Assembly (NCBI GenBank): GCA_033765235.1
Contig: JANRIG010000020.1
Span: 56,105-120,104 of the forward strand
Reading direction: 5' to 3'
Length of the DNA stretch: 64,000 nt
Source of the DNA: Cytophagales bacterium
GTDB lineage: Bacteria; Bacteroidota; Bacteroidia; Cytophagales; UBA9547
Shown here piece after piece: positions 1-19,142 of the stretch (positions are counted from its first letter, which is position 1; every line of letters starts with the position of its first letter). The notes below the pieces were generated by a model that searched no databases, was not told where the DNA came from, and saw only the letters and a program-made list of their open reading frames with translations. The position numbers were made by a program, and so were the translations under genes.

Positions 1-1
1 C

Positions 2-580
2 AGTGAACAGCTTCGCTTAACAATTGAAGTGGTTAAAGAACGACAGGAGAGTGAGTTGATTAATAATAAAGAGTATGGCTTAATCAGCAGCACACCCAAA
101 TCACAAATTATCAAAACCCGCACTGGTGCACCCACACCCGATGATTTGGATGAATTGTTGACCAAAGTGTGGAAACAACCAGGATTCTTTTTGTTACATC
201 CATTAACCGTTGCTGCTTTCGGAAGAGAGTGTACCCGTAGAGGCGTACCTCCTCCAACGGTATCTTTATTTGGTTCTCAATTTATCACTTGGAGAGGCAT
301 ACCTCTTATCCCGAGCGACAAAGTTCCGATAGCAAACGGCAAGTCTAAAATATTATTGCTCCGTACTGGAGAAGAACGCCAAGGTGTTGTAGGTTTGTAT
401 CAACCCAACCTTCCGGGGGAACAAACACCCGGTTTGTCGGTGAGATTTATGGGAATTAATGATAAGGCCATTGCATCTTACTTGGTTTCATTGTATTGTT
501 CCATCGCAGTGTTGGTGGATGATGCCATTGCGGTGTTGGATGATGTAGATATTACCAAATATCACGAATACAAATACTAG
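2..580 (+). CDS. srpI: Family 2A encapsulin shell protein (SrpI / major membrane protein I type), 5' part outside window
   Basis: Frame is open from base 2 (SEQLRLTIEVVKERQESELINNKEYGL...). Motifs GAPTPDDLDELLTKVWK, AAFGRECTRRGVPPPT, WRGIPLIPSDK and C-terminal YHEY are typical of family 2A shells; it lies directly upstream of a cargo desulfurase. Confidence 0.93.
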   Translation, partial: SEQLRLTIEVVKERQESELINNKEYGLISSTPKSQIIKTRTGAPTPDDLDELLTKVWKQPGFFLLHPLTVAAFGRECTRRGVPPPTVSLFGSQFITWRGIPLIPSDKVPIANGKSKILLLRTGEERQGVVGLYQPNLPGEQTPGLSVRFMGINDKAIASYLVSLYCSIAVLVDDAIAVLDDVDITKYHEYKY

Positions 581-2568: not shown

Positions 2569-3417
2569 ATGAGAAATGAGATAAACCAGCGGTTCATTCA
2601 TTTTTTATACAAAAATCATCATGAAGAATGGGTGCCTACGCCTTTTCCTGCCGATGCCATCAAGTGGCTTAAGGATTTGTTAGAATATCTTTTTCCAAAT
2701 ACTTTTTTACCAAATATTTCACTTTATGAAGGGTTGTTGAAAAAAAACCAAATTGATATTGAAAATATTTTGCTGAGCTATCTCAATCATAAAAATTTTG
2801 AAATTGAAAAAACCGTAGATGATTTTTATGCTTCTCTGGAACAGATATATATCAACTTAAGAAATGATGCAGAAGCTACGGTAAACAGCGACCCTGCCGC
2901 TACGAGCATACATGAAGTAATTGTGTCATATCCGGGTTTTTTTGCAACTGCGGTATACCGTATAGCACACAAGCTAGCAAACTTAGGCGTTCCCATATTA
3001 CCCAGAATACTTTGCGAATATGCCCATGCAAATACAGGAATTGATATTCACCCCAATGCAGTTATTGGTGTACCTTTTGTGATTGACCACGGTACAGGGG
3101 TTGTAATTGGCGAAACCAGTATTATTGGTAACAATGTCACTATTTATCAAGGGGTTACATTAGGGGCATTGCATGTAGAAAAAGGACTTTCTGATACCAA
3201 ACGACATCCAACAGTTGGCGACAATGTCATTATTTATGCAAGAACTACTATTTTGGGGGGCAATACCGTTATTGGCGATAATTACATTATTGGAGGAAGT
3301 GTATTTTTAACCAAAAGTATTGAAGCCAATTCCAATGTGTTTAATACCCACCAACTGCGCATCAGTTCCAAAGACCGCAAAGTGCAAGATTACGATTTGA
3401 CGATTCAGGCTTCGTAG
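2569..3417 (+). CDS. cysE: Serine O-acetyltransferase (EpsC/CysE type)
   Basis: DPAA, YPGF, TGIDIHP, IDHGTGVVIGET, YQGVTLGA and KRHPT motifs with hexapeptide repeats. Confidence 0.9.
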   Translation: MRNEINQRFIHFLYKNHHEEWVPTPFPADAIKWLKDLLEYLFPNTFLPNISLYEGLLKKNQIDIENILLSYLNHKNFEIEKTVDDFYASLEQIYINLRNDAEATVNSDPAATSIHEVIVSYPGFFATAVYRIAHKLANLGVPILPRILCEYAHANTGIDIHPNAVIGVPFVIDHGTGVVIGETSIIGNNVTIYQGVTLGALHVEKGLSDTKRHPTVGDNVIIYARTTILGGNTVIGDNYIIGGSVFLTKSIEANSNVFNTHQLRISSKDRKVQDYDLTIQAS

Positions 3418-3649
3418 TGCGTTTATACTTAATTTAACGCAAGTACCCATTTTTTATTCTAGCTGTTAACAATTTTGTTTTAAATATATCAAGTCAACCT
3501 TGGCATAATATTGCAAGTTTAAACCAGATTTACATCCGGTTATATTCATATTTATAAGTAATCTTGTTAAAATAACAATTTGACAACTCATAAAAAAACA
3601 GAATATTATTCTGATATAAATAAATATTTTAAAAAATATAAAATTTTAT

Positions 3650-3679
3650 TTTGTATATAAAATAAAAATGCTATATTTG
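3650..3679 (+). promoter_or_regulatory. Bacteroidota housekeeping-sigma promoter (-33 TTTG / -7 TAnnTTTG) for the NTF2-sulfatase unit
   Basis: TTTG at 3650-3653, 18-nt spacer, TATATTTG at 3672-3679. Confidence 0.55.
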
Positions 3680-3681
3680 TA

Positions 3682-3765
3682 ATGCCTAATTGAAATACTT
3701 TATACGCCACCCAATAAAGTTTAAGAATATACTCACGCCACCTGCTATATTACTATTTTGGGCAT
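3682..3765 (+). ncRNA. Putative structured 5' leader RNA: basal stem enclosing two hairpins with identical ACGCCACC loop motifs
   Basis: P1 ATGCCTAA(3682-89)/TTGGGCAT(3758-65); P2 ACTTTAT(3697-3703)/ATAAAGT(3714-20); P3 AATATA(3726-31)/TATATT(3746-51); ACGCCACC at 3704-11 and 3735-42. Confidence 0.45.
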
Positions 3766-3786
3766 AATTGTACTTAACTTTTAAAG

Positions 3787-3876
3787 ATGCTCAAATATTC
3801 TTTATTCAGTCAGTACTTCATTATTATCTGTTGTTTCATTAAAAAATTTATTTGGTTTAGACCATTTTATAAATAG
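3787..3876 (+). CDS. Putative leader peptide (29 aa) with tandem Cys codons: MLKYSLFSQYFIIICCFIKKFIWFRPFYK
   Basis: ATG 3787 with A at -3, TGT-TGT at 3829-3834, TAG 3874-3876; lies between the predicted promoter and the sulfatase unit. Confidence 0.35.
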   Translation: MLKYSLFSQYFIIICCFIKKFIWFRPFYK

Positions 3877-3979
3877 AAAAAGTGCTTAGCTATTACAGGC
3901 TCTGTACTAATAATACATGATTTATGCAACCTCAAAACACAACTTATTTAGTTAATAATTAATTGTAAACTCAAATTTT

Positions 3980-4435
3980 ATGACAAAAATCATTCTTCAT
4001 TTTTCAATATTTATTTTGCTGACTTCTTGTGTAAGGGAAAGTAATACCAACCAAGAGTTAGAAGAAAGCAACAAAAAAGTGATCCTACAATTTTACCAAA
4101 AAGCTTTCAACGAGTTAGATACCAATGCCGTTGATGAATTTATTTCAGAACCTTACATTCAGCACAATCCTAATGTGCCCAATGGCAAAAAGCCAGTGAA
4201 AGAGTTGATAAGTTGGCTTGCCACCAATCAACCAAAAGGTGTAAACGAGTTTAAACGAATAATAGCAGACTCAGATTATGTGGTACTCCATGTTCGATAT
4301 GTACCCAATGATTCGGCAAATGTAGAACTGGCCTGTGTAGATATTTTTAAACTTAAAAACGGAAAGATAACCGAACACTGGGATGTTCAGCAAAATGTAC
4401 CAGCTAAGTCAGCAAATACAAATACTATGTTTTAA
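3980..4435 (+). CDS. NTF2-like / SnoaL-like lipoprotein
   Basis: Lipobox LTSC; YIQHNP and DIFKLKNGKITEHWDV motifs. Confidence 0.8.
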   Translation: MTKIILHFSIFILLTSCVRESNTNQELEESNKKVILQFYQKAFNELDTNAVDEFISEPYIQHNPNVPNGKKPVKELISWLATNQPKGVNEFKRIIADSDYVVLHVRYVPNDSANVELACVDIFKLKNGKITEHWDVQQNVPAKSANTNTMF

Positions 4436-4471: not shown

Positions 4472-6793
4472 ATGAAAAAACTTAATCTATTCAGTGCCTC
4501 CTTGCTTGGGGTGAGTACGCTCTTTGCACAATACGACCCCGTCCAACCCTGGAATGGCAAAAACGGCAAAATTTTAGCCGAATCTACCCCTTACAAAGCC
4601 GAGCCAGCGGTAAAAACACCACAAAATGCTCCTAATGTGGTCTGGATATTGCTAGATGATATAGGATATGGTGTAATCTCTCCTTTTGGAGGAGCTGTAA
4701 ACACCCCTAATTTGCAAAAACTGGCTGACGAAGGCTTGCGATACACCAATTTTCACACTACAGCTATTTGTTCGCCCACTCGTGCCTCTTTGCTTTCAGG
4801 TCGAAATCAACACTCGGCACACATGGGCTTGTTTCCTGAAACCGCCATTGATTTTCCAGGCTACGATGCCAAAATTCCTTTCGAAAAAGCACTTATTTCG
4901 GAAGTATTACGTGAAAATGGCTACAACACTTTTGCAGTAGGCAAATGGCATTTGACTCCTGTAAATGAAGCCACACAAGCTGGTCCGTTCAACCGTTGGC
5001 CTACAGGTAGGGGATTTGATAAATACTTCGGCTTTCCTTACGGACAAGTCTCACAATGGGAACCCTACCTTTGGGAAGGAACGGATGTGGTAGAACCTGA
5101 TACCAAAAATCCGGTACACTTCACCACCTTGATTACTAATAAAGCGATCAAATACATTTCTAATCAAAAATCAGTTAATCCTGACAAACCTTTCTTTTTG
5201 TATTACACACCAGGGGCAGGACACGCTCCGCATCACGTAGACAAAGAATGGATTGAAAAATACAAAGGCAAGTTTGACAATGGCTGGGATGTGTATCGCA
5301 ATGAAACACTTGAGCGTCAAAAAAAGTTAGGCATAGTACCTCAAAATGTACAGTTACCCTTAAAAACTCCGAATGTAAAACCTTGGGATTCGCTTTCGGT
5401 AGATGAAAAGAAAGTATACGCACGTTTTTTTGAAGTATATGCCGGATTTGTAGAACATACTGACTTTGAAATAGGACGCTTAATCAATCACTTGAAAGAA
5501 ATTGGCCAGTACGAAAACACCATTTTTGCTGTGGTGGTAGGCGACAACGGTTGCTCTAAAGAAGGTACTGCCAATGGGGTAATCAATGGATATATTCAGA
5601 ATTTGCCTGAGAAAGAGCGTATTGCAGAGCTGTTGAAAAACATAGACAATATAGGAAATATCAACACGCATACCAATTTCCCCTTTGGCTGGGCATCGGC
5701 CGGAAACACCCCTTTTCGCTACCTCAAGCAAGATGCCAATGCCGAAGGCGGTACTCGCAACCCGTTGATATTGAGCTGGCCAAAAGGTATTAAAGACAAA
5801 GGTACACTTCGCCATCAGTATTCGCACGTAAACAGCCTTTGGCAAACCACTGTGGATTTGACAGGCTCCAAAGTGCCAGAATACATCAATGGCTACAAAC
5901 AAGAACCTACTGAAGGTACAAGTTTGGCTTATACCATCGACAACCCCACTGCCCCAGGCAAACATACCGTTCAATATTTTGAAATAACAGGCTCACGCGC
6001 CATATACAAAGACGGCTGGAAAGCCTCAGTATATCACAAGCAAGGTGCGCCTTTTGAAACAGACGTGTGGGAACTGTATGACTTAAACACTGACTTTAAT
6101 GAGCGAGTGAACTTGGCATCTAAAAACCCTGCAAAATTGAAAGAGCTTCAAGATCAGTTTGATACAGAAGCCAAAAAGTATAACGTATATCCGCTCAAAG
6201 ATTGGAGTGCCTCGTCTTTTGGTACCAACAAAAACAGTGCCTATGTGGGCAGAAAACAAGTAGTATTATACCCAGGATTATCTCAAACATTTGGTTTGGC
6301 AGGTCCTACTTTTTGGAATGCAAGTTTTACAATTATCAGCGATGTAGAAATTTCAAATACCAACAACGAAGGGGTATTGTTTGCCTTGGGAGGTAGATTT
6401 GGGGGCTTGAGTTTGTTTATCAAAGACCATAAATTTCAATTGGCGCATAATTTGGGAACCAAAATATTCCATGTAGAATCCTCCAAAACCATACCTGCGG
6501 GTAAAGTACAATTGAAGTATGAATTTAATTTTACTGCCACACCTAAGCCACGCGGCTCATCAGTTTTTGCCCTTGACCCTAAAGAAGCCTTAGAGCCTGC
6601 AGGAAATGAAATTTTGTATATAAATGGTGAGAAGGTAGCAGAATCGCCCATTATACGTGCTCATGGTTATATATTTGGCTATGATGAAGGATTGGATATA
6701 GGTCAAGACAATGCCAGCCCTGTTTCAGATAAATACAAAACGCCTTTTGCATTTACAGGAAGTTTAAAAAAAGTAACAATTGATTTTAAATAA
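4472..6793 (+). CDS. Secreted arylsulfatase (Cys-type, formylglycine-dependent, AtsA-like long form)
   Basis: Signal peptide; PNVVWILLDD, CSPTRASLLSGR (CxPxR), GKWHL, HAPH and DNG motifs; C-terminal beta-sandwich extension. Confidence 0.93.
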   Translation: MKKLNLFSASLLGVSTLFAQYDPVQPWNGKNGKILAESTPYKAEPAVKTPQNAPNVVWILLDDIGYGVISPFGGAVNTPNLQKLADEGLRYTNFHTTAICSPTRASLLSGRNQHSAHMGLFPETAIDFPGYDAKIPFEKALISEVLRENGYNTFAVGKWHLTPVNEATQAGPFNRWPTGRGFDKYFGFPYGQVSQWEPYLWEGTDVVEPDTKNPVHFTTLITNKAIKYISNQKSVNPDKPFFLYYTPGAGHAPHHVDKEWIEKYKGKFDNGWDVYRNETLERQKKLGIVPQNVQLPLKTPNVKPWDSLSVDEKKVYARFFEVYAGFVEHTDFEIGRLINHLKEIGQYENTIFAVVVGDNGCSKEGTANGVINGYIQNLPEKERIAELLKNIDNIGNINTHTNFPFGWASAGNTPFRYLKQDANAEGGTRNPLILSWPKGIKDKGTLRHQYSHVNSLWQTTVDLTGSKVPEYINGYKQEPTEGTSLAYTIDNPTAPGKHTVQYFEITGSRAIYKDGWKASVYHKQGAPFETDVWELYDLNTDFNERVNLASKNPAKLKELQDQFDTEAKKYNVYPLKDWSASSFGTNKNSAYVGRKQVVLYPGLSQTFGLAGPTFWNASFTIISDVEISNTNNEGVLFALGGRFGGLSLFIKDHKFQLAHNLGTKIFHVESSKTIPAGKVQLKYEFNFTATPKPRGSSVFALDPKEALEPAGNEILYINGEKVAESPIIRAHGYIFGYDEGLDIGQDNASPVSDKYKTPFAFTGSLKKVTIDFK

Positions 6794-6847: not shown

Positions 6848-6919
6848 GTCCCCTTGACCGAGTGGTTAGGTAACTGTCTGCAAAACAGTGTACATCGGTT
6901 CGAATCCGATAGGAGGACT
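6848..6919 (+). tRNA. tRNA-Cys (GCA) with an extra, bulged nucleotide in the 3' strand of the acceptor stem; CCA not encoded
   Basis: D-arm ACC-GAGTGGTTA-GGT; anticodon arm ACTGT-CTGCAAA-ACAGT; T-arm ATCGG-TTCGAAT-CCGAT; acceptor GTCCCCT / AGG(A)GGAC; discriminator T6919. Confidence 0.85.
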
Positions 6920-6940
6920 CTAACATTTTACTTAAACTTT

Positions 6941-13357: not shown

Positions 13358-14341
13358 TTAAAACTCCCAAAGATTGTGTTCATACTCCATGATATCTACC
13401 GAAGCCTTTTCAGAGCCGTATCTGCCGGCTTTAGGATCTCCACCATATGTATCTACTATGAGCTCATCATAAGGATTTGACACTTTGATGATAAAAGATG
13501 AAAATAATCGTAAGTCAAAAGCATCCACAAAGTTTTTGTGTTCGGCATCATTCTCACGGTTAAACCATATCGCTCTACCATCTTTTCTAAATTGCTCACA
13601 CAAATCTTTGTATTTTATCACAGCTACAGGTTGGTTAAATCCTCGAGGGTTTATGGCAGCCGGTATATACAGGGTAAAAGCTATGATATCATAATACATA
13701 CGTGAACGTTTTTTGTCAAATATCACGTCTTCTTTTATATCTATCAATGTGAGCAACTTAGGATCTATATCCCTTGATTGTGATAACAATTGCTTTTTTT
13801 CCTCTTCAGACATACCTGTAGTATCAGGCATTATATTGTTAGGGTCTACCAAGTTGGCTTTGAACTGTTCTTCAGTAAGTGATTTACCTTCATCCAAAGA
13901 GTCTGTAGCATAAGCTTTAAGTTTGCCCATTTTCAAATATTCTATAATGAGTACAGGCAACTCCTTGCTAGATGACATGAAGCCTTTATTTTGCTTTTCT
14001 TTCATGTCAAGCCTACGCCATACAGTTTTTCTGAACATTATATCCTTATCTAAAATAGGGTGTATTGAGTATTTATTGTATTTATCAGGAGAAACAACTC
14101 TTTTGATTTTGGCTTCATATTCAGCCAATTTTCTAGTTCTTTCTTCTTCTGCAGCTGCTTTCTTTTTGTTTTCTTCCTCTAATGCAGCTGCTTTAGCAGC
14201 ATCTTGCTCAGCTTTTAATTGCTCCGCAGATTTTACAGGTGTTGCCGGTGCAGCGGGAACAGCCTTTTTTTTGCCTTTTTGCGCGTATCCTGCAGTGGCA
14301 AATATGGCTAATACGATAATAAATAAATACTTTCTGTTCAT
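13358..14341 (-). CDS. gldN: Gliding motility / T9SS protein GldN (PorN)
   Basis: KTVWRRLD, KEDVIFDKKRSRMYYDI, RLFSSFIIK, EYEHNLWEF; last gene of gldKLMN. Confidence 0.93.
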   Translation of the reverse strand: MNRKYLFIIVLAIFATAGYAQKGKKKAVPAAPATPVKSAEQLKAEQDAAKAAALEEENKKKAAAEEERTRKLAEYEAKIKRVVSPDKYNKYSIHPILDKDIMFRKTVWRRLDMKEKQNKGFMSSSKELPVLIIEYLKMGKLKAYATDSLDEGKSLTEEQFKANLVDPNNIMPDTTGMSEEEKKQLLSQSRDIDPKLLTLIDIKEDVIFDKKRSRMYYDIIAFTLYIPAAINPRGFNQPVAVIKYKDLCEQFRKDGRAIWFNRENDAEHKNFVDAFDLRLFSSFIIKVSNPYDELIVDTYGGDPKAGRYGSEKASVDIMEYEHNLWEF

Positions 14342-14351
14342 TATTTTATAT

Positions 14352-15980
14352 TTAATCTACAATTGGTACAGTATATATAACTTGAGTAATTTTTACTTCT
14401 TCTGTTTTATCATAGAAGTTTGTACGAAGTACTTGTTTTATCTCAAGAGTAATCCTGTCATTGGCTTTAGCTTGGCTGGCAAAGTCAGATAAGTCTAATA
14501 CTTCTGCCACAGCATCTTTTTGTTTTATCAACCTTGAGCCACGAAGTAAGTATGCAGTCCATTTTGTAATTTTGTAGCGTGCATCTTTGGGGTTTGAAGC
14601 TGCAAAATCTGCAAGGGGTACCGCTTTTACTTGGAGTGACCTGGGACCAGGAGCTTTAATACCATTTTTCATATCTACAGGTTTGCCATTATATATGATG
14701 TTTATATCCGGCTTAGGTACAGGTTTTACAGGAAAGTTTACATCTCCAATGTAGTTTCCGCTGCTGCTTACTTTTATGGTAACATTTTTGGTGTTAGGCA
14801 CTACATATATTTCGCCTTTTTGTTGACCGTTTTGTATATCGGCACCTGTTGCCACAAATGATGGGTTATAAACAGAACCTAAAGCAGGAACGTTGATTTG
14901 AAGAGGGTTACCGCAGTTCATGTACAAGGCACTTACTGCACCTGATTGTACTTGTATTACAGGTTTGGCTACAACGTATTCTCCTTTTACTATAAATGTA
15001 GTATCATTTCCTTTGTTTTTGAAAGTTACAGATCCTGACCATGTTTTTTTGCAAAGACCATCTTTATCGTAGCTTCCACCGGTAGCCACAAACTCAAGTT
15101 TACCCATACCGCTTTTGTCAACTTGAAGTTGACGACCGTCTACTTTTATTTGAGGTTTGATAGCGGATGATGAAGCAGACAAAAATACTTCTGCAAGATA
15201 TTTAGTTCCGGCAGCTACTACTCGAGAGTCTGCGCGATACATGGCAAATACTTGGTCGAATTTTATATCTGTAGCACCCAATTGCACAGCCAAAAGATTA
15301 AGAGCATCTGCTTCATATTTAAGCACTTCAGATTCCAAATTGCTCATTACAGCCATACTGGCACACATGGGAGTTTGACCAAAGTTAAGTGCAGCAAAAT
15401 CTTTGCGTTTTTGCTCACTACTTTTAGGTATCCTTTTGTCATCTTTAGCATCCATAGCTATATTTGGAAACCTACGTATGATAGCACTGGGTCCTTCACC
15501 TTCTTTGAGTTTCATGTCATCCAAATAATCGCAAAACTTTTTTACTTTAGCTTGTAGTTCATATGCTTTACCTTTTTTGGAGCCTTCCGGACCTATCATG
15601 AATACTTCAACAGCAGTTTCTTCTTTGGCACCTTTCCAACTGCCGTCTTCTTCCAAACCACCTGTCACTTTCACGATGTCTTCGCGTACTTTATCAATGA
15701 AATCTTTGATTTCTTGAGCTTCTTTTCGCACCTCTTTTGCACGTGTAAGTACTTGTATATCAGACGGTTTATTTCCAGCATCTGCTACAGCTTTTTCAAT
15801 AGTTTTTTCTGTATCAATATTGTTTTTATCCATCTCATCGTTTGAGTATTGCAAACTATCGTCAAGCATTTTAAACTTTTCCATGATAGCTGAACTCACC
15901 TGTAGGGCAAGTAGTGCCAGTAGCACCAAATACATGAGCCCAATCAGTTTTTGCCTTGGGGTTTCTTTACCTCCTGCCAT
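14352..15980 (-). CDS. gldM: Gliding motility / T9SS motor protein GldM (PorM)
   Basis: N-terminal ETPRQKLIGLMYLVLLALLALQVS; LYMNCGNP motif. Confidence 0.96.
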   Translation of the reverse strand: MAGGKETPRQKLIGLMYLVLLALLALQVSSAIMEKFKMLDDSLQYSNDEMDKNNIDTEKTIEKAVADAGNKPSDIQVLTRAKEVRKEAQEIKDFIDKVREDIVKVTGGLEEDGSWKGAKEETAVEVFMIGPEGSKKGKAYELQAKVKKFCDYLDDMKLKEGEGPSAIIRRFPNIAMDAKDDKRIPKSSEQKRKDFAALNFGQTPMCASMAVMSNLESEVLKYEADALNLLAVQLGATDIKFDQVFAMYRADSRVVAAGTKYLAEVFLSASSSAIKPQIKVDGRQLQVDKSGMGKLEFVATGGSYDKDGLCKKTWSGSVTFKNKGNDTTFIVKGEYVVAKPVIQVQSGAVSALYMNCGNPLQINVPALGSVYNPSFVATGADIQNGQQKGEIYVVPNTKNVTIKVSSSGNYIGDVNFPVKPVPKPDINIIYNGKPVDMKNGIKAPGPRSLQVKAVPLADFAASNPKDARYKITKWTAYLLRGSRLIKQKDAVAEVLDLSDFASQAKANDRITLEIKQVLRTNFYDKTEEVKITQVIYTVPIVD

Positions 15981-16032
15981 TTTTTTATCTTATTATATTG
16001 TTATACAAATAAATATTTTAATATTCTACAGA

Positions 16033-16854
16033 TTATGCTCTCATAGCACTGAGCATGTTGCCATACACAGTATTGAGTGATGAAAGGTTACCTGTAAGTT
16101 TTGAAAGTTCGCTTTTGAACGATTGAGTATCTTTGCTTGCTTCTGACATATTTTCCATAGCAGCGGACAAACTTGAATAAAACTTGTTCATTGATTTCAA
16201 GTGTACATTTACGTCTTGAAGTTCCATTTCATATACTGCATTGAGAGCACTTAAATTTTTGGTAATGCTTTGTACTTGCGTATGGTATTCTTTAGCATCT
16301 GTAGATGATTTAGCCATTTCAGACATTGCAGTCACTGTAGATGAATATACTTTGTTAAGTTCTTGCACGGTAGATGTAGCTGCTTTTACATTTTGAGCAT
16401 ATTCGTCTGATGCCACTGCAGCGGAAGCAATAGTGCCCATTTTATTCACAGTTTCTGTGAGAGAATTGAACCCTGTACCAAGTTTTTGGAGTGTTTCACC
16501 TGTAATGTTGGCATCGCTAAGCATATCATCCATTTTTTTGACGAGGCTTCCTTTGTCATCTTTCTTTTTGTCAACTTTATGTTGGGTGTGAGAATGTTGC
16601 TCTCCTAAGTCAGGATATACAATAGTCCAATCGGGTTCGGCAATGGGAGGTGCAAAAGCGAATAATAAGAAAAGTACAGCTTCTGTGCCCAACCCAACTA
16701 TAAGCATGGGTGCAGCACCCGGCCAGTGCATGATTTTAAAAAGTGCACCGAGGATAACTACTGATGCTCCTACACCTGTAATAACGGGGGCTATTTTTAC
16801 ATAAAATTTATCTTTGCCAGATAATGGATGCGAGGTTCTGTAAGGGATACTCAT
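16033..16854 (-). CDS. gldL: Gliding motility / T9SS motor protein GldL (PorL)
   Basis: GASVVILGALFKIMHWPGA, GLGTEA, DWTIVYP; C-terminal LNTVYGNMLSAM. Confidence 0.96.
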   Translation of the reverse strand: MSIPYRTSHPLSGKDKFYVKIAPVITGVGASVVILGALFKIMHWPGAAPMLIVGLGTEAVLFLLFAFAPPIAEPDWTIVYPDLGEQHSHTQHKVDKKKDDKGSLVKKMDDMLSDANITGETLQKLGTGFNSLTETVNKMGTIASAAVASDEYAQNVKAATSTVQELNKVYSSTVTAMSEMAKSSTDAKEYHTQVQSITKNLSALNAVYEMELQDVNVHLKSMNKFYSSLSAAMENMSEASKDTQSFKSELSKLTGNLSSLNTVYGNMLSAMRA

Positions 16855-16908
16855 AGTTTGGAGAAATTAATGGATGATGGTAAATAATTAAGTTATACAA
16901 AGATTAAA

Positions 16909-18003
16909 TTAAAATTCCTGACCAGATGATCGACCTAAGTAGGTCATAACACATCTAAATCCGATAAAAGATTTGGCAGTATCAGAATATTCGAAGGTAC
17001 GTGAGCCTAATTCAAGGAAATATGCTACATCTTTCCATGATCCTCCGCGTACTAATTTTCTTTTTTCGTTTTCATTATAATAAGTTGGATTCATATCCCA
17101 AACCAATGGAACTGAGGCTTCATAAAAAGCGTCTTCGCACCACTCTGATACGTTTCCTGACATATCATAAAGACCATAGTCATTAGAAAAATAAGATCCG
17201 GTAGGTGCAGTATACATAAATCCATCGTCGTAATAGTTGCCACGACCCGGCTTTAAGTTTGCAAGCATACAGCCTTTGGAGTTACGAATATAAGGGCCTC
17301 CCCAAGGATATTTGGTCATGTCTCTGCCTCCACGTCCGGCATATTCCCATTCTGCTTCTGACGGGAGTCTGAATTTAGGGTTAGCAAAAAGATTGAGACC
17401 ACTTAGTTCTGTACGCCACTCATTCATGTAACGTGTGCGCCAATCGCAAAACATGCGAGCCGATGACCAATCAACACCTACAACAGGATATTCGTCAAAA
17501 GCAGGGTGGTAGAAATAATATTCCATCATAGGGTCTCCCATGTGGTGTGCGAAATCTCTAACCCAAACTGTGGTGTCAGGGTAAAGCTCTCGCATGATAA
17601 ATTCATCTCCTTTGCTTTTGACAGTGGAGTCAAGATAGGCTTGTGTATTTTTCCAATCAGGGTACTCGTCGGGGCGAAGAAGGAAGTATATAAATTGGCG
17701 ATATTCGTTGTTAGTAACCTCAGTTTCATCCATATAGAATCCACCGATAGTGATTTGTTTGTTAAAATTAATTTGCGTAGCAGGCACGTCTTGGTCTGCT
17801 TGACCCATGTGGAAAGTACCTGATGGGCATACTACCATGCCATAAGGTGTACTTTGTGACCAACCTACTCTGTCAGGCACTCCAATTAAGTCACCTCCTC
17901 CTGTGTCGGTAGAACTTGCACCGCCGCAAGATTGAATAATAATAATGGCAAATAAGAGCGCTACTAAGTTAAGCGAATACTTATTAACAAGTTGTTTTAT
18001 CAT
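16909..18003 (-). CDS. gldK: Gliding motility / T9SS lipoprotein GldK (PorK), FGE-sulfatase fold
   Basis: Lipobox IQSC; DETEVTNNEY, YPDTTVW, RLPSEAEWEYA, RGGSWKD, IGFRCV; located between porP and gldL. Confidence 0.93.
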   Translation of the reverse strand: MIKQLVNKYSLNLVALLFAIIIIQSCGGASSTDTGGGDLIGVPDRVGWSQSTPYGMVVCPSGTFHMGQADQDVPATQINFNKQITIGGFYMDETEVTNNEYRQFIYFLLRPDEYPDWKNTQAYLDSTVKSKGDEFIMRELYPDTTVWVRDFAHHMGDPMMEYYFYHPAFDEYPVVGVDWSSARMFCDWRTRYMNEWRTELSGLNLFANPKFRLPSEAEWEYAGRGGRDMTKYPWGGPYIRNSKGCMLANLKPGRGNYYDDGFMYTAPTGSYFSNDYGLYDMSGNVSEWCEDAFYEASVPLVWDMNPTYYNENEKRKLVRGGSWKDVAYFLELGSRTFEYSDTAKSFIGFRCVMTYLGRSSGQEF

Positions 18004-18035
18004 AAAACCAAGTTTCCTTTAGTGTTTAAACTTTT

Positions 18036-18043
18036 CAAAACTA
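18036..18043 (-). promoter_or_regulatory. -7 promoter element for gldKLMN
   Basis: Minus-strand TAGTTTTG about 32 nt upstream of the gldK ATG. Confidence 0.45.
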
Positions 18044-18095
18044 TGCATTAAATTTTTAATATACAACATGATATTAAAAAAAAATGCATTTTTTT

Positions 18096-19142
18096 TTAAT
18101 ATCTATATCTTGGGGTACGAATTGGAGGTCTTGCCAATACGTCTGATACGGGTATATAATAGGATAAAAAGAGTTCATGGGAGGTGCCTGCCTTGGCTTG
18201 TGTGCCAATGACAGAGAGGTCGAATGCGTAGCCTGCACGCAGTGCATTGTTTTTGAGAAATCCTATTCCAAGTATAATGATGGCTGCATCGTTGTGCCTG
18301 TATGATAGCCCACCCCACAGCTTGTCATTATTATATTTGAGCATAAAATTGATATCAAAACTGGATGCGGCAAGTGGTGGGATATTAAGTTTGACAAATG
18401 TAGATGGCACGAGCGTGAAGTAGTCTGAAAGTTTTATATTGATGCCTGCGGTGAGGAAGTAATGCCTTACTTTTTGTGATGAATAATTAATATCATTGAG
18501 TGTACTATTAAATAGTGATGGGGAGAGGAGTCTATTTATGCCTAATCCTGCGAAGAAGCGCGGGTGTGCATAATATATTCCTGTATTAATATCTAAAGCA
18601 TTGGCAGAATTATTAGAGGTAAGGTTTTGTATTCTGAGATCGCTGGGGTCGTTGTACTTAAGTTTTTGGGCATCTATGCTGGTATTGACAATACCTATGC
18701 CTGCACCTATGCCGAGTGTGCCTTTGGCGATGTTGATATGGTAAGAGTAGTTGATTTTGAGGTCGATTGTTTGATAAATGGCTATTTTATCATTTTGCAG
18801 ATGTATGCCTATGCCGCTGTTGATGGACTTGATGGCTGTGGAGCCTGCAAACATGAGTGTTTGTGGTGCTGCATTGACCCCATCGTCGGGGGTTGATGAC
18901 AGACCCAGCCATTGGTATCTGTATAAAAGGTATAGTTCTGTTTGTTTATATATGCCGGAGTAGGCAGGATTGTATAAGTTGCCTGTAAACATGTATTGGC
19001 TAAAGTGTGCGTCTTGTTGTGGCAGTGCGGGTATTGTACATAAGAGCACTAAGAGTGATGTATATATATATATGTGTAGTTGCTTAAAATAAGAGCCAAA
19101 TTTTGGAAGTAAAAATACGTATAGGTTGTGGGATATAGGCAT
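18096..19142 (-). CDS. porP: T9SS membrane protein, PorP/SprF family
   Basis: QQDAHFSQY, NPAYSG, YRYQW, GYAFD, GTSHEL motifs; upstream of gldK. Exact start uncertain. Confidence 0.88.
   Translation of the reverse strand: MPISHNLYVFLLPKFGSYFKQLHIYIYTSLLVLLCTIPALPQQDAHFSQYMFTGNLYNPAYSGIYKQTELYLLYRYQWLGLSSTPDDGVNAAPQTLMFAGSTAIKSINSGIGIHLQNDKIAIYQTIDLKINYSYHINIAKGTLGIGAGIGIVNTSIDAQKLKYNDPSDLRIQNLTSNNSANALDINTGIYYAHPRFFAGLGINRLLSPSLFNSTLNDINYSSQKVRHYFLTAGINIKLSDYFTLVPSTFVKLNIPPLAASSFDINFMLKYNNDKLWGGLSYRHNDAAIIILGIGFLKNNALRAGYAFDLSVIGTQAKAGTSHELFLSYYIPVSDVLARPPIRTPRYRY

Follow-up and report, generated by a model that had tools for sequence, protein, structure and literature searches.

Two adjacent operons of an uncultured Cytophagales bacterium are each preceded by a promoter-like site and by the box ACGCCACC, set within hairpin-like inverted repeats. 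The element considered here lies at 3650-3765 on the + strand of a 64,000-nucleotide stretch of contig JANRIG010000020.1 (C8; positions 56,105 to 120,104; hereafter the window) and carries two copies of the box; a third copy stands just before the window, ahead of the neighbouring operon. All three boxes are on the gene strand. The sequences, the three copies, the paralogy of the regions that hold them, their position after promoter-like sites and their gene context are direct observations. The three repeats are probably an undescribed regulatory signal, and sequence by itself does not decide whether that signal acts as RNA or as DNA. The reading that we tentatively put forward, and to which we give a little less than an even chance, is that of a lineage-specific cis-regulatory leader hairpin motif in which the box acts in RNA loops.

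In this reading, the element would be the second of two copies of a cis-regulatory module that lies close to the promoter in each of two neighbouring operons, one for an encapsulin, a cysteine desulfurase and CysE, and the other for a SnoaL-like protein, a sulfatase and tRNA-Cys. The working part of the module would be the invariant ACGCCACC, read in the sense strand and presented in the loops of short A/U-rich hairpins that would begin ~12-18 nt into the transcript. A single factor acting in trans, whether protein or complementary RNA, would recognise the loops and decide what becomes of the leader transcript by way of read-through, stability or translation, so that both operons would be co-regulated, presumably with sulfur or cysteine supply. 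The transcription of the hairpins, their action at the RNA level, the trans-acting factor and the sulfur signal are what we infer from the arrangement of the sequence.

Layout of the element and its paralogous copy

The promoter-like site at 3650-3679 (+ strand) consists of a -33 TTTG at 3650-3653, an 18-nt spacer and the -7 box TATATTTG at 3672-3679, which we take to be the Bacteroidota -33/-7 promoter consensus. It is followed on the same strand by a basal stem, the halves of which (ATGCCTAA at 3682-3689 and TTGGGCAT at 3758-3765) form eight pairs, one of them U.G, in both the minimum free energy (MFE) and the centroid fold. Enclosed by this stem are hairpin 1 (3697-3720), with a 7-bp stem (ACTTTAT 3697-3703, ATAAAGT 3714-3720) and the 10-nt loop ACGCCACCCA that holds the box at 3704-3711, and hairpin 2 (3726-3751), with a 6-bp stem (AATATA 3726-3731, TATATT 3746-3751) and the 14-nt loop CTCACGCCACCTGC that holds the box at 3735-3742. 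The initial annotation of the window had described just these parts, from the TTTG-N18-TATATTTG promoter to the basal stem and the two ACGCCACC-loop hairpins, and each was recovered in its place. Its statement that the element lies directly 3′ of a promoter also held, as the site is the only full Bacteroidota-type consensus in + strand intergenic DNA among the three matches to TTTG-N16-22-TANNTTTG in the surrounding 10-kb locus (L051). With this consensus, transcription is expected to start a few nucleotides 3′ of the -7 box, and the 5′ half of the basal stem may lie at or upstream of the start. A reading of the box as part of a sigma-54 or ECF promoter was set aside, because by eye the spacings and second elements do not suit the consensus.

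The element occupies a 562-nt AT-rich gap (12-31% G+C) between the two + strand operons. No TANNTTTG is listed on the + strand between 3680 and 4000, a range that includes the rest of the AT-rich leader (3766-3979), and there are no terminator-like sites in 3300-4100. Therefore, the element is most simply the start of a leader of ~300 nt. These same two facts bear on whether the promoter at 3650-3679 instead produces a separate, trans-acting small RNA of ~85-100 nt, in which the C-rich loops, reminiscent of those of RsaE and RoxS, would act as seeds for G-rich targets. A consensus promoter directly in front, a domain closed by a basal stem and two identical C-rich loops are all suited to such an RNA, but it would have no terminator, the downstream genes would be left in need of the promoter at 3650-3679, the perfect complement of the box (GGTGGCGT) is absent from the window, and the third copy lies in a leader-like position ~70 nt before a start codon. 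We regard a separate small RNA as highly improbable. No pseudoknot partner for the loops was seen either, with no GGTGG in the leader by eye and no GGTGGCGT in the window. A 7/8 complement of the box in the encapsulin coding start (GGTGACGT) was treated as chance.

The third hairpin, GTATAC-TACGCCACCTT-GTATAT, is at C8:55671-55693 (L051:5567-5589, + strand), 412-434 nt before window position 1 and ~70-90 nt upstream of the ATG of a type 2A encapsulin gene. The idea of twin binding sites, raised in the initial annotation, gains from it, since the box recurs before a neighbouring operon and all eight letters are the same in hairpins with differing stems. The two intergenic regions align over more than 100 columns, which include AAAGTTTA, TATACT(C), the box plus T, two variable letters and TATATTA, and scattered identity continues on both sides of this core. 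The alignment shows the sites to be paralogous modules, each made up of a promoter and a leader at the head of one of the adjacent operons, with the sulfatase-operon copy having one extra unit, hairpin 1. In the sulfatase-operon copy the box of hairpin 1 starts 25 nt past the last G of TATATTTG, and in the encapsulin copy the box starts 26 nt past the last G of TAATTTG, which is one letter short of the consensus, so that both modules have the same layout.

The comparison of hairpins 1 and 2 provides the strongest internal argument for RNA loops. Their boxes are identical at 8/8 positions, and their stems are unlike in sequence, in length (7 versus 6 bp) and in the loop enclosed (10 versus 14 nt), yet in both hairpins the arms are fully complementary. 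A fixed box between variable but complementary arms would be expected of a site displayed in a loop and is unlike a dimer operator. Likewise, the arm spacings of 10, 11 and 14 nt in the three hairpins would not be tolerated by a fixed dimeric DNA binder. The G.U pairs at the base of the third hairpin and in the basal stem exist in the sense strand only and therefore also favour action as RNA.

The paralogy of the modules raises the further explanation that the repeats are a relic of duplication with little or no function, a promoter-leader segment having been copied at the assembly of the island and its repeats inherited unselected. This explanation accounts for the long alignment of the modules described above, with its shared AAAGTTTA, box and TATATTA. 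It is also in keeping with internal direct repeats of period 74-78 nt (TGCTATATT at 3669 and 3743; GCCTAATTG / GCATAATTG at 3684 and 3762), which indicate that the region arose partly by local duplication, since parts of the -7 box region and of the beginning of the element recur after hairpin 2. The patchy presence of the encapsulin gene in the family, together with 82-90% identity across orders, points to horizontal transfer and to a recently assembled island, and conservation of the box was not found in 400 genomes of the order or at 80 encapsulin loci. However, the 8/8 identity of the box in hairpins 1 and 2 amid mostly different flanks argues for selection on the box, perfect complementarity has been kept in both sets of flanks, and the layout relative to the -7-like box has been kept at 25 and 26 nt. 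We consider a functionless relic very doubtful. The earlier claim that the twin hairpins are not a simple tandem duplication stands in part: the stems of hairpins 1 and 2 do differ, but the region contains the direct repeats, and hairpin 2 closely matches the third hairpin in sequence. A reading of the repeats flanking the encapsulin operon as att sites of a mobile cassette was rejected because no integrase was found nearby and the repeats are by eye unlike the tRNA-Cys 3′ end.

By number alone the box is unremarkable in the window, where it occurs twice against 0.64 expected and where at least two copies arise in 18 of 100 shuffles. Two copies 15-35 nt apart occurred in none of the 100 shuffles. 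Across the 3.36-Mb genome (38% G+C) there are 36 copies. In a scan for the 7-mer CGCCACC inside stem-loops with a stem of at least 5 pairs and at most one G.U, 13 of 229 occurrences genome-wide were in loops, and the full 8-mer was present in four of these 13: hairpins 1 and 2, the third hairpin and a fourth at C33:44689. Three of these loops thus fall within 4.2 kb, in two regions that head adjacent related operons. The copy at C10:197583, the only one of the other 33 copies checked for coding context, is within an open reading frame (ORF). As CGCCACC in loops shows no genome-wide enrichment over five control 7-mers, the ACGCCACC signal is local and does not mark a genome-wide family.

Encapsulin leaders of other lineages

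We compared the region upstream of the encapsulin gene at 80 loci drawn from the 558 encapsulin relatives found. The shell protein is 82-90% identical across these loci, which come from Cytophagales, Chitinophagales, Sphingobacteriales and Flavobacteriales, and the upstream regions are lineage-specific. Such high identity in a protein of patchy distribution points to horizontal spread or to very strong constraint. A few encapsulin records are labelled Burkholderiaceae, Herbaspirillum or Bifidobacteriaceae, and the upstream sequence of locus L071 is the same as that of G011:C21.

The clearest parallel to the ACGCCACC hairpins is in Chitinophaga (L069:5878-5950 and 11 more loci), where ACCCACCAGCAGG is followed by a hairpin of the form AAATG-A[G/C]CCAC[C/T]ACA-CATTT, the invariant loop being of the type AGCCACCACA. 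Across the 12 loci the hairpin extends to ~12 pairs with 91.7% of cells paired. Its covariation score of 0.287, which was reached by none of 500 shuffles (0.195 shuffled) and fell to at most 0.177 with the pairing partners slid, comes from related sequences and from a structure taken from the same data. Cells with G.U (17) outnumber those with A.C (4), as expected of sense-strand RNA. These alignments are moderate evidence that the encapsulin leader in Chitinophaga contains an RNA hairpin, formed by the sense strand, with GCCACC in its loop. The hairpin, a single copy per genome, was found in 9/41 Chitinophaga genomes and in 0/150 other genomes of its family, the leader has no Rfam match, and it looks like a candidate new cis-regulatory RNA. 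As an independent parallel, the Chitinophaga hairpin favours an RNA reading of the ACGCCACC hairpins.

Other encapsulin leaders have C-rich loops or boxes too: AGAGCAA-UACCACAAU-UUGCUCU in L054 (-8.3 kcal/mol), a loop with AGCCAC in L087, ACCACC directly after a TATATTTG in L056, and CCACC in G020. Those in L054, L087 and L056, picked by eye, count towards the RNA reading. A wider class of undescribed RNA signal can be proposed, in which short A/U-rich hairpins with a C-rich (G/C)CCAC(C) box mark the leaders of desulfurase-encapsulin operons and of operons for scavenging sulfate esters in Bacteroidota, but we think such a class quite unlikely. The ACGCCACC and Chitinophaga hairpins would then be two lineage versions of one signal, through which a factor or small RNA couples sulfur storage and scavenging to sulfur status, a proposal that we hold at the same low probability.

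A different kind of site is found in the encapsulin operons of Mucilaginibacter and of several Cytophagales and Chitinophagales (L060-L068, L094, L098, L114, L054, L057, L058, L066 and L072), where a TTCTATAGAA-type palindrome lies inside the promoter-like site, ~60-150 nt before the encapsulin start. This palindrome is probably the operator of a repressor. In Dyadobacter (L107:5850-5975 and 12 further loci), a conserved GGCTGGTGGCAGG stands ~45 nt upstream of a TATGTTTG box, some species have extra copies of GGTGGC, and the leader contains a GC-rich hairpin that shows compensatory changes (GCGCT / GGCGC against GCGTC / GACGC).

In G011, a genome of the same family as the one studied here, the encapsulin leader (L172:10030-10150, - strand) has two 6-bp hairpins with TACCAG loops (GUACCAGCU and AAUACCAGAAUC). 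TACCAG occurs 13 times in the 12.5-kb locus against 4.4 expected, the two hairpins are weak (z +0.31 and -0.97), and a third TACCAG follows the operon without a hairpin.

The literature searched yielded no RNA or DNA motif at encapsulin operons, although RNA-motif catalogues may list one, and nothing on how desulfurase encapsulin operons are regulated in Bacteroidota.

RNA hairpin or DNA operator

The initial annotation had called the element a structured leader RNA of an unrecognised kind. The second part of this description is borne out by a scan of the window against Rfam 15, which covers SAM-I, SAM-II, T-box, Flavo-1 and Bacteroides motifs among its families and in which only the tRNA matched at the gathering threshold. 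With E values up to 10, the region 3400-4000 gave one unrelated snoRNA (E 1.7, 17 bits against a gathering score of 85), and the region of the third copy gave only five matches, of 7-16 bits against gathering scores of 39-285. Neither is the element an intrinsic terminator or attenuator by the features examined, with A/U-rich stems of -0.3 to -2.8 kcal/mol and no terminator-like site in 3300-4100. The first part of the description fares less evenly. The MFE and centroid folds give the claimed architecture for 3675-3775, for 3682-3765 and for the whole 319-nt leader, within which the element remains an independent folded domain, but the stems are weak and the z-scores are near those of shuffled sequence. 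Hairpin 1 by itself has a predicted energy of -2.5 kcal/mol, and none of 200 shuffles of the 28-mer was as stable; the third hairpin by itself has -2.8 kcal/mol, with 9/200 shuffles as good. A MAFFT alignment of the three ACGCCACC hairpins leaves their stems out of register.

A number of results weigh against action of the box in RNA loops. The fold is no stabler than shuffles at any length considered (z -0.03 for 101 nt, -0.69 for 84 nt and +0.77 for the 319-nt leader), and hairpin 2 by itself reaches only -0.3 kcal/mol (z +0.35), with 96/200 shuffles as good. The MFE structure of the 104-nt encapsulin leader uses other pairings, and the third hairpin is absent from it. The lack of an Rfam family for either copy also counts against a structured RNA. 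Because the sequences of hairpin 2 and the third hairpin are nearly the same, these two do not provide independent evidence for a hairpin and are counted once. The promoter of the encapsulin copy lacks the full consensus, and its region can also be read as TTTG-N17-TATATTAA, which places the box inside the promoter spacer, so that transcription would not cover all of the third hairpin. Across the genome, loops show no enrichment of CGCCACC, with 13/229 compared with 16-25 of 182-352 for five control 7-mers, and ACGCCACC is absent upstream of cysH and cysD in the same genome.

The comparison with Chitinophaga has its own weaknesses. The Chitinophaga covariance model R1 misses the ACGCCACC hairpins, as its sole match in this genome (E 4.8) lies elsewhere, and with filters off none of its 20 matches in the 10-kb locus (E up to 10) corresponds to any of the three. 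The failure of R1 indicates a likeness of design and not demonstrated homology. Moreover, the cross-lineage pattern of C-rich loops was chosen by eye, after the fact.

The motif was found in no other genome searched. A BLAST search with 3560-3860 against 60 relatives gave AT-rich promoter-like matches to query positions ~1-140 only and left the hairpins unmatched. The exact twin-box pattern matched in 37 others of 400 genomes of the order, always in GC-rich stretches with the look of coding or tandem-repeat sequence, and none of these resembles the element. Within the family, the element was in 0/21 other genomes; two of the 21 have an encapsulin gene and one has a SnoaL homologue (41% identity), and the box is absent in each of them. 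A metagenome scan with the SnoaL protein returned 37 loci, the best at 47% identity, and no close relative. In the 400 nt before the encapsulin gene, ACGCCACC is absent from all 80 related loci, where a 7-mer and a 6-mer were searched as well. Matches in Dyadobacter near +3400 proved to be a KRHP codon run inside the acetyltransferase gene.

The chief alternative is that the box is a DNA operator, bound by a transcription factor as a monomer or as direct repeats. Lying 20-60 bp past the SnoaL promoter and, ahead of the other operon, within the encapsulin promoter or immediately behind it, the box would serve for repression, or from within the spacer for activation, and the inverted repeats on its flanks would have arisen incidentally or been inherited. 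The two boxes in the window start 31 bp apart, which is about three helical turns and would put them on the same face of the helix, and the third copy can be taken to lie within the 17 nt that separate TTTG from TATATTAA. By themselves the hairpins are too weak for good folding, and clear DNA-type palindromes such as TTCTATAGAA do occur in other encapsulin promoters, as do the GGTGGC copies of Dyadobacter, in opposite orientation, upstream of the TATGTTTG box. Short GC-rich boxes in AT-rich promoters of co-located related operons are, in addition, most often the binding sites of factors. On the other side, the box is not palindromic, and its differing arms at spacings of 10, 11 and 14 nt could not be read by a dimer. 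A dimeric operator does not fit a site in which the arms vary and only the asymmetric centre is conserved; a monomeric or direct-repeat binder still might. An operator leaves the complementarity of the arms unexplained (~0.02-0.05 per site, a rough estimate from base composition), the island has no regulator gene, with the nearest, a DeoR-type gene, ~9 kb away, and neither the cysH nor the cysD promoter contains the box. We judge a DNA operator to be a real contender, if on the whole unlikely.

Gene context and comparison with known systems

The genes around the element form a sulfur-acquisition and sulfur-storage island. The upstream operon encodes the type 2A encapsulin shell (ATG at C8:55764, before the window; window 1-580), a cysteine desulfurase (649-2559), of which the first ~250 residues have no Pfam match, and the serine acetyltransferase CysE (2569-3417). 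Downstream of the element are a SnoaL-like putative lipoprotein (3980-4435; PF07366 / PF12680), a 773-residue sulfatase (4472-6793; PF00884) and, directly 3′ of the sulfatase gene and on its strand, tRNA-Cys (GCA) at 6848-6920, beyond which the operon continues with a DoxX protein and a TonB-dependent receptor. Further upstream lie SusD, a second sulfatase, a fatty-acid-hydroxylase-family protein, DUF4395 and a PF03601 transporter. Desulfurase encapsulins have been described as sulfur-storage compartments (PMC10836720), and the cyanobacterial encapsulin homologue SrpI as induced by sulfate starvation (PMC8049743), which speaks for the proposed reading. About 10 kb downstream, at 13358-19142 (- strand), the window contains a gliding/type IX secretion cluster that looks ordinary, with Pfam matches to GldN, GldM, GldL, an FGE-sulfatase-domain protein and PorP/SprF.

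The presence of tRNA-Cys in the operon bears on a T-box-type leader or a mimic of the tRNA 3′ end that reads the neighbouring tRNA, since the initial annotation had pointed to GCCA in the loops and to partial complementarity with the tRNA D-loop. The loops do contain GCCA, and in another genome of the family tRNA-Cys immediately precedes the encapsulin gene. The complementarity to tRNA-Cys, by eye, is of only 4 nt (CCAC to GUGG, in the D-loop), which is the level of chance, a UGC codon stands beside the box in hairpin 2 only, there is no terminator/antiterminator pair, and no Rfam T-box match appeared with E up to 10. A tRNA-sensing leader is close to refuted. In two genomes of the family, this one and G020, tRNA-Cys(GCA) is linked to the encapsulin island; in G020 it lies at L134:917-988, ~50 nt upstream of the encapsulin start.

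We know of little on how Bacteroidota sense sulfur or cysteine. A box shared by an encapsulin operon and a sulfatase/tRNA-Cys operon offers a handle on the regulator, with the box as bait and the operons as read-out. If the cross-lineage parallel is true, the hairpins would represent a new class of cis-regulatory RNA for sulfur metabolism; if it fails, the box would be another promoter-proximal motif particular to one lineage, in a single uncultured genome.

The leader also contains an upstream ORF of 29 codons with an ATG start (3787-3876, + strand; MLKYSLFSQYFIIICCFIKKFIWFRPFYK) and two adjacent Cys codons (..IIICCFIKK..), situated between the hairpins and the SnoaL, sulfatase and tRNA-Cys genes. 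This ORF may be a second, independent device or a product of chance in AT-rich DNA. Mycobacterial polycysteine short ORFs act as cysteine-responsive attenuators (bioRxiv 10.1101/834739). The ORF described here, which has two adjacent Cys codons among its 29 and precedes sulfur genes and tRNA-Cys, is like them to that extent; it differs in having only two Cys codons, in not being leaderless and in being separate from the hairpins.

Among the systems found at encapsulin operons, the TTCTATAGAA operators of Mucilaginibacter and others share with the element a conserved promoter-proximal box before the same type of operon. They are true palindromes between -33 and -7, whereas ACGCCACC is asymmetric, lies ~25 nt past the -7 box and has complementary arms of variable sequence on either side. 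The Chitinophaga hairpin is alike in its type 2A encapsulin leader, its strand, its A/U-rich stem, its 10-nt GCCACC loop and a second CCACC box ~22 nt upstream; features of its own are the invariant stem AAATG / CATTT and its single copy.

CsrA and RsmA bind GGA displayed in the loops of hairpins in leaders and small RNAs. The element resembles their targets in its weak hairpins, its different stems and a short loop motif repeated near the 5′ end of the transcripts that it would regulate. It differs in that the repeated motif is ACGCCACC and not GGA, in the lack of overlap with a ribosome-binding site and in having three copies in one genome; by the definition of a CsrA/RsmA target, GGA would be in the loops, and there is none in ACGCCACCCA, CTCACGCCACCTGC or TACGCCACCTT. 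Overall, the element fits none of the families considered (Rfam families, T-box, terminator, CsrA-type target, Chitinophaga hairpin and dimer operator), and in the way it would work it resembles motifs that are repeated and displayed in loops.

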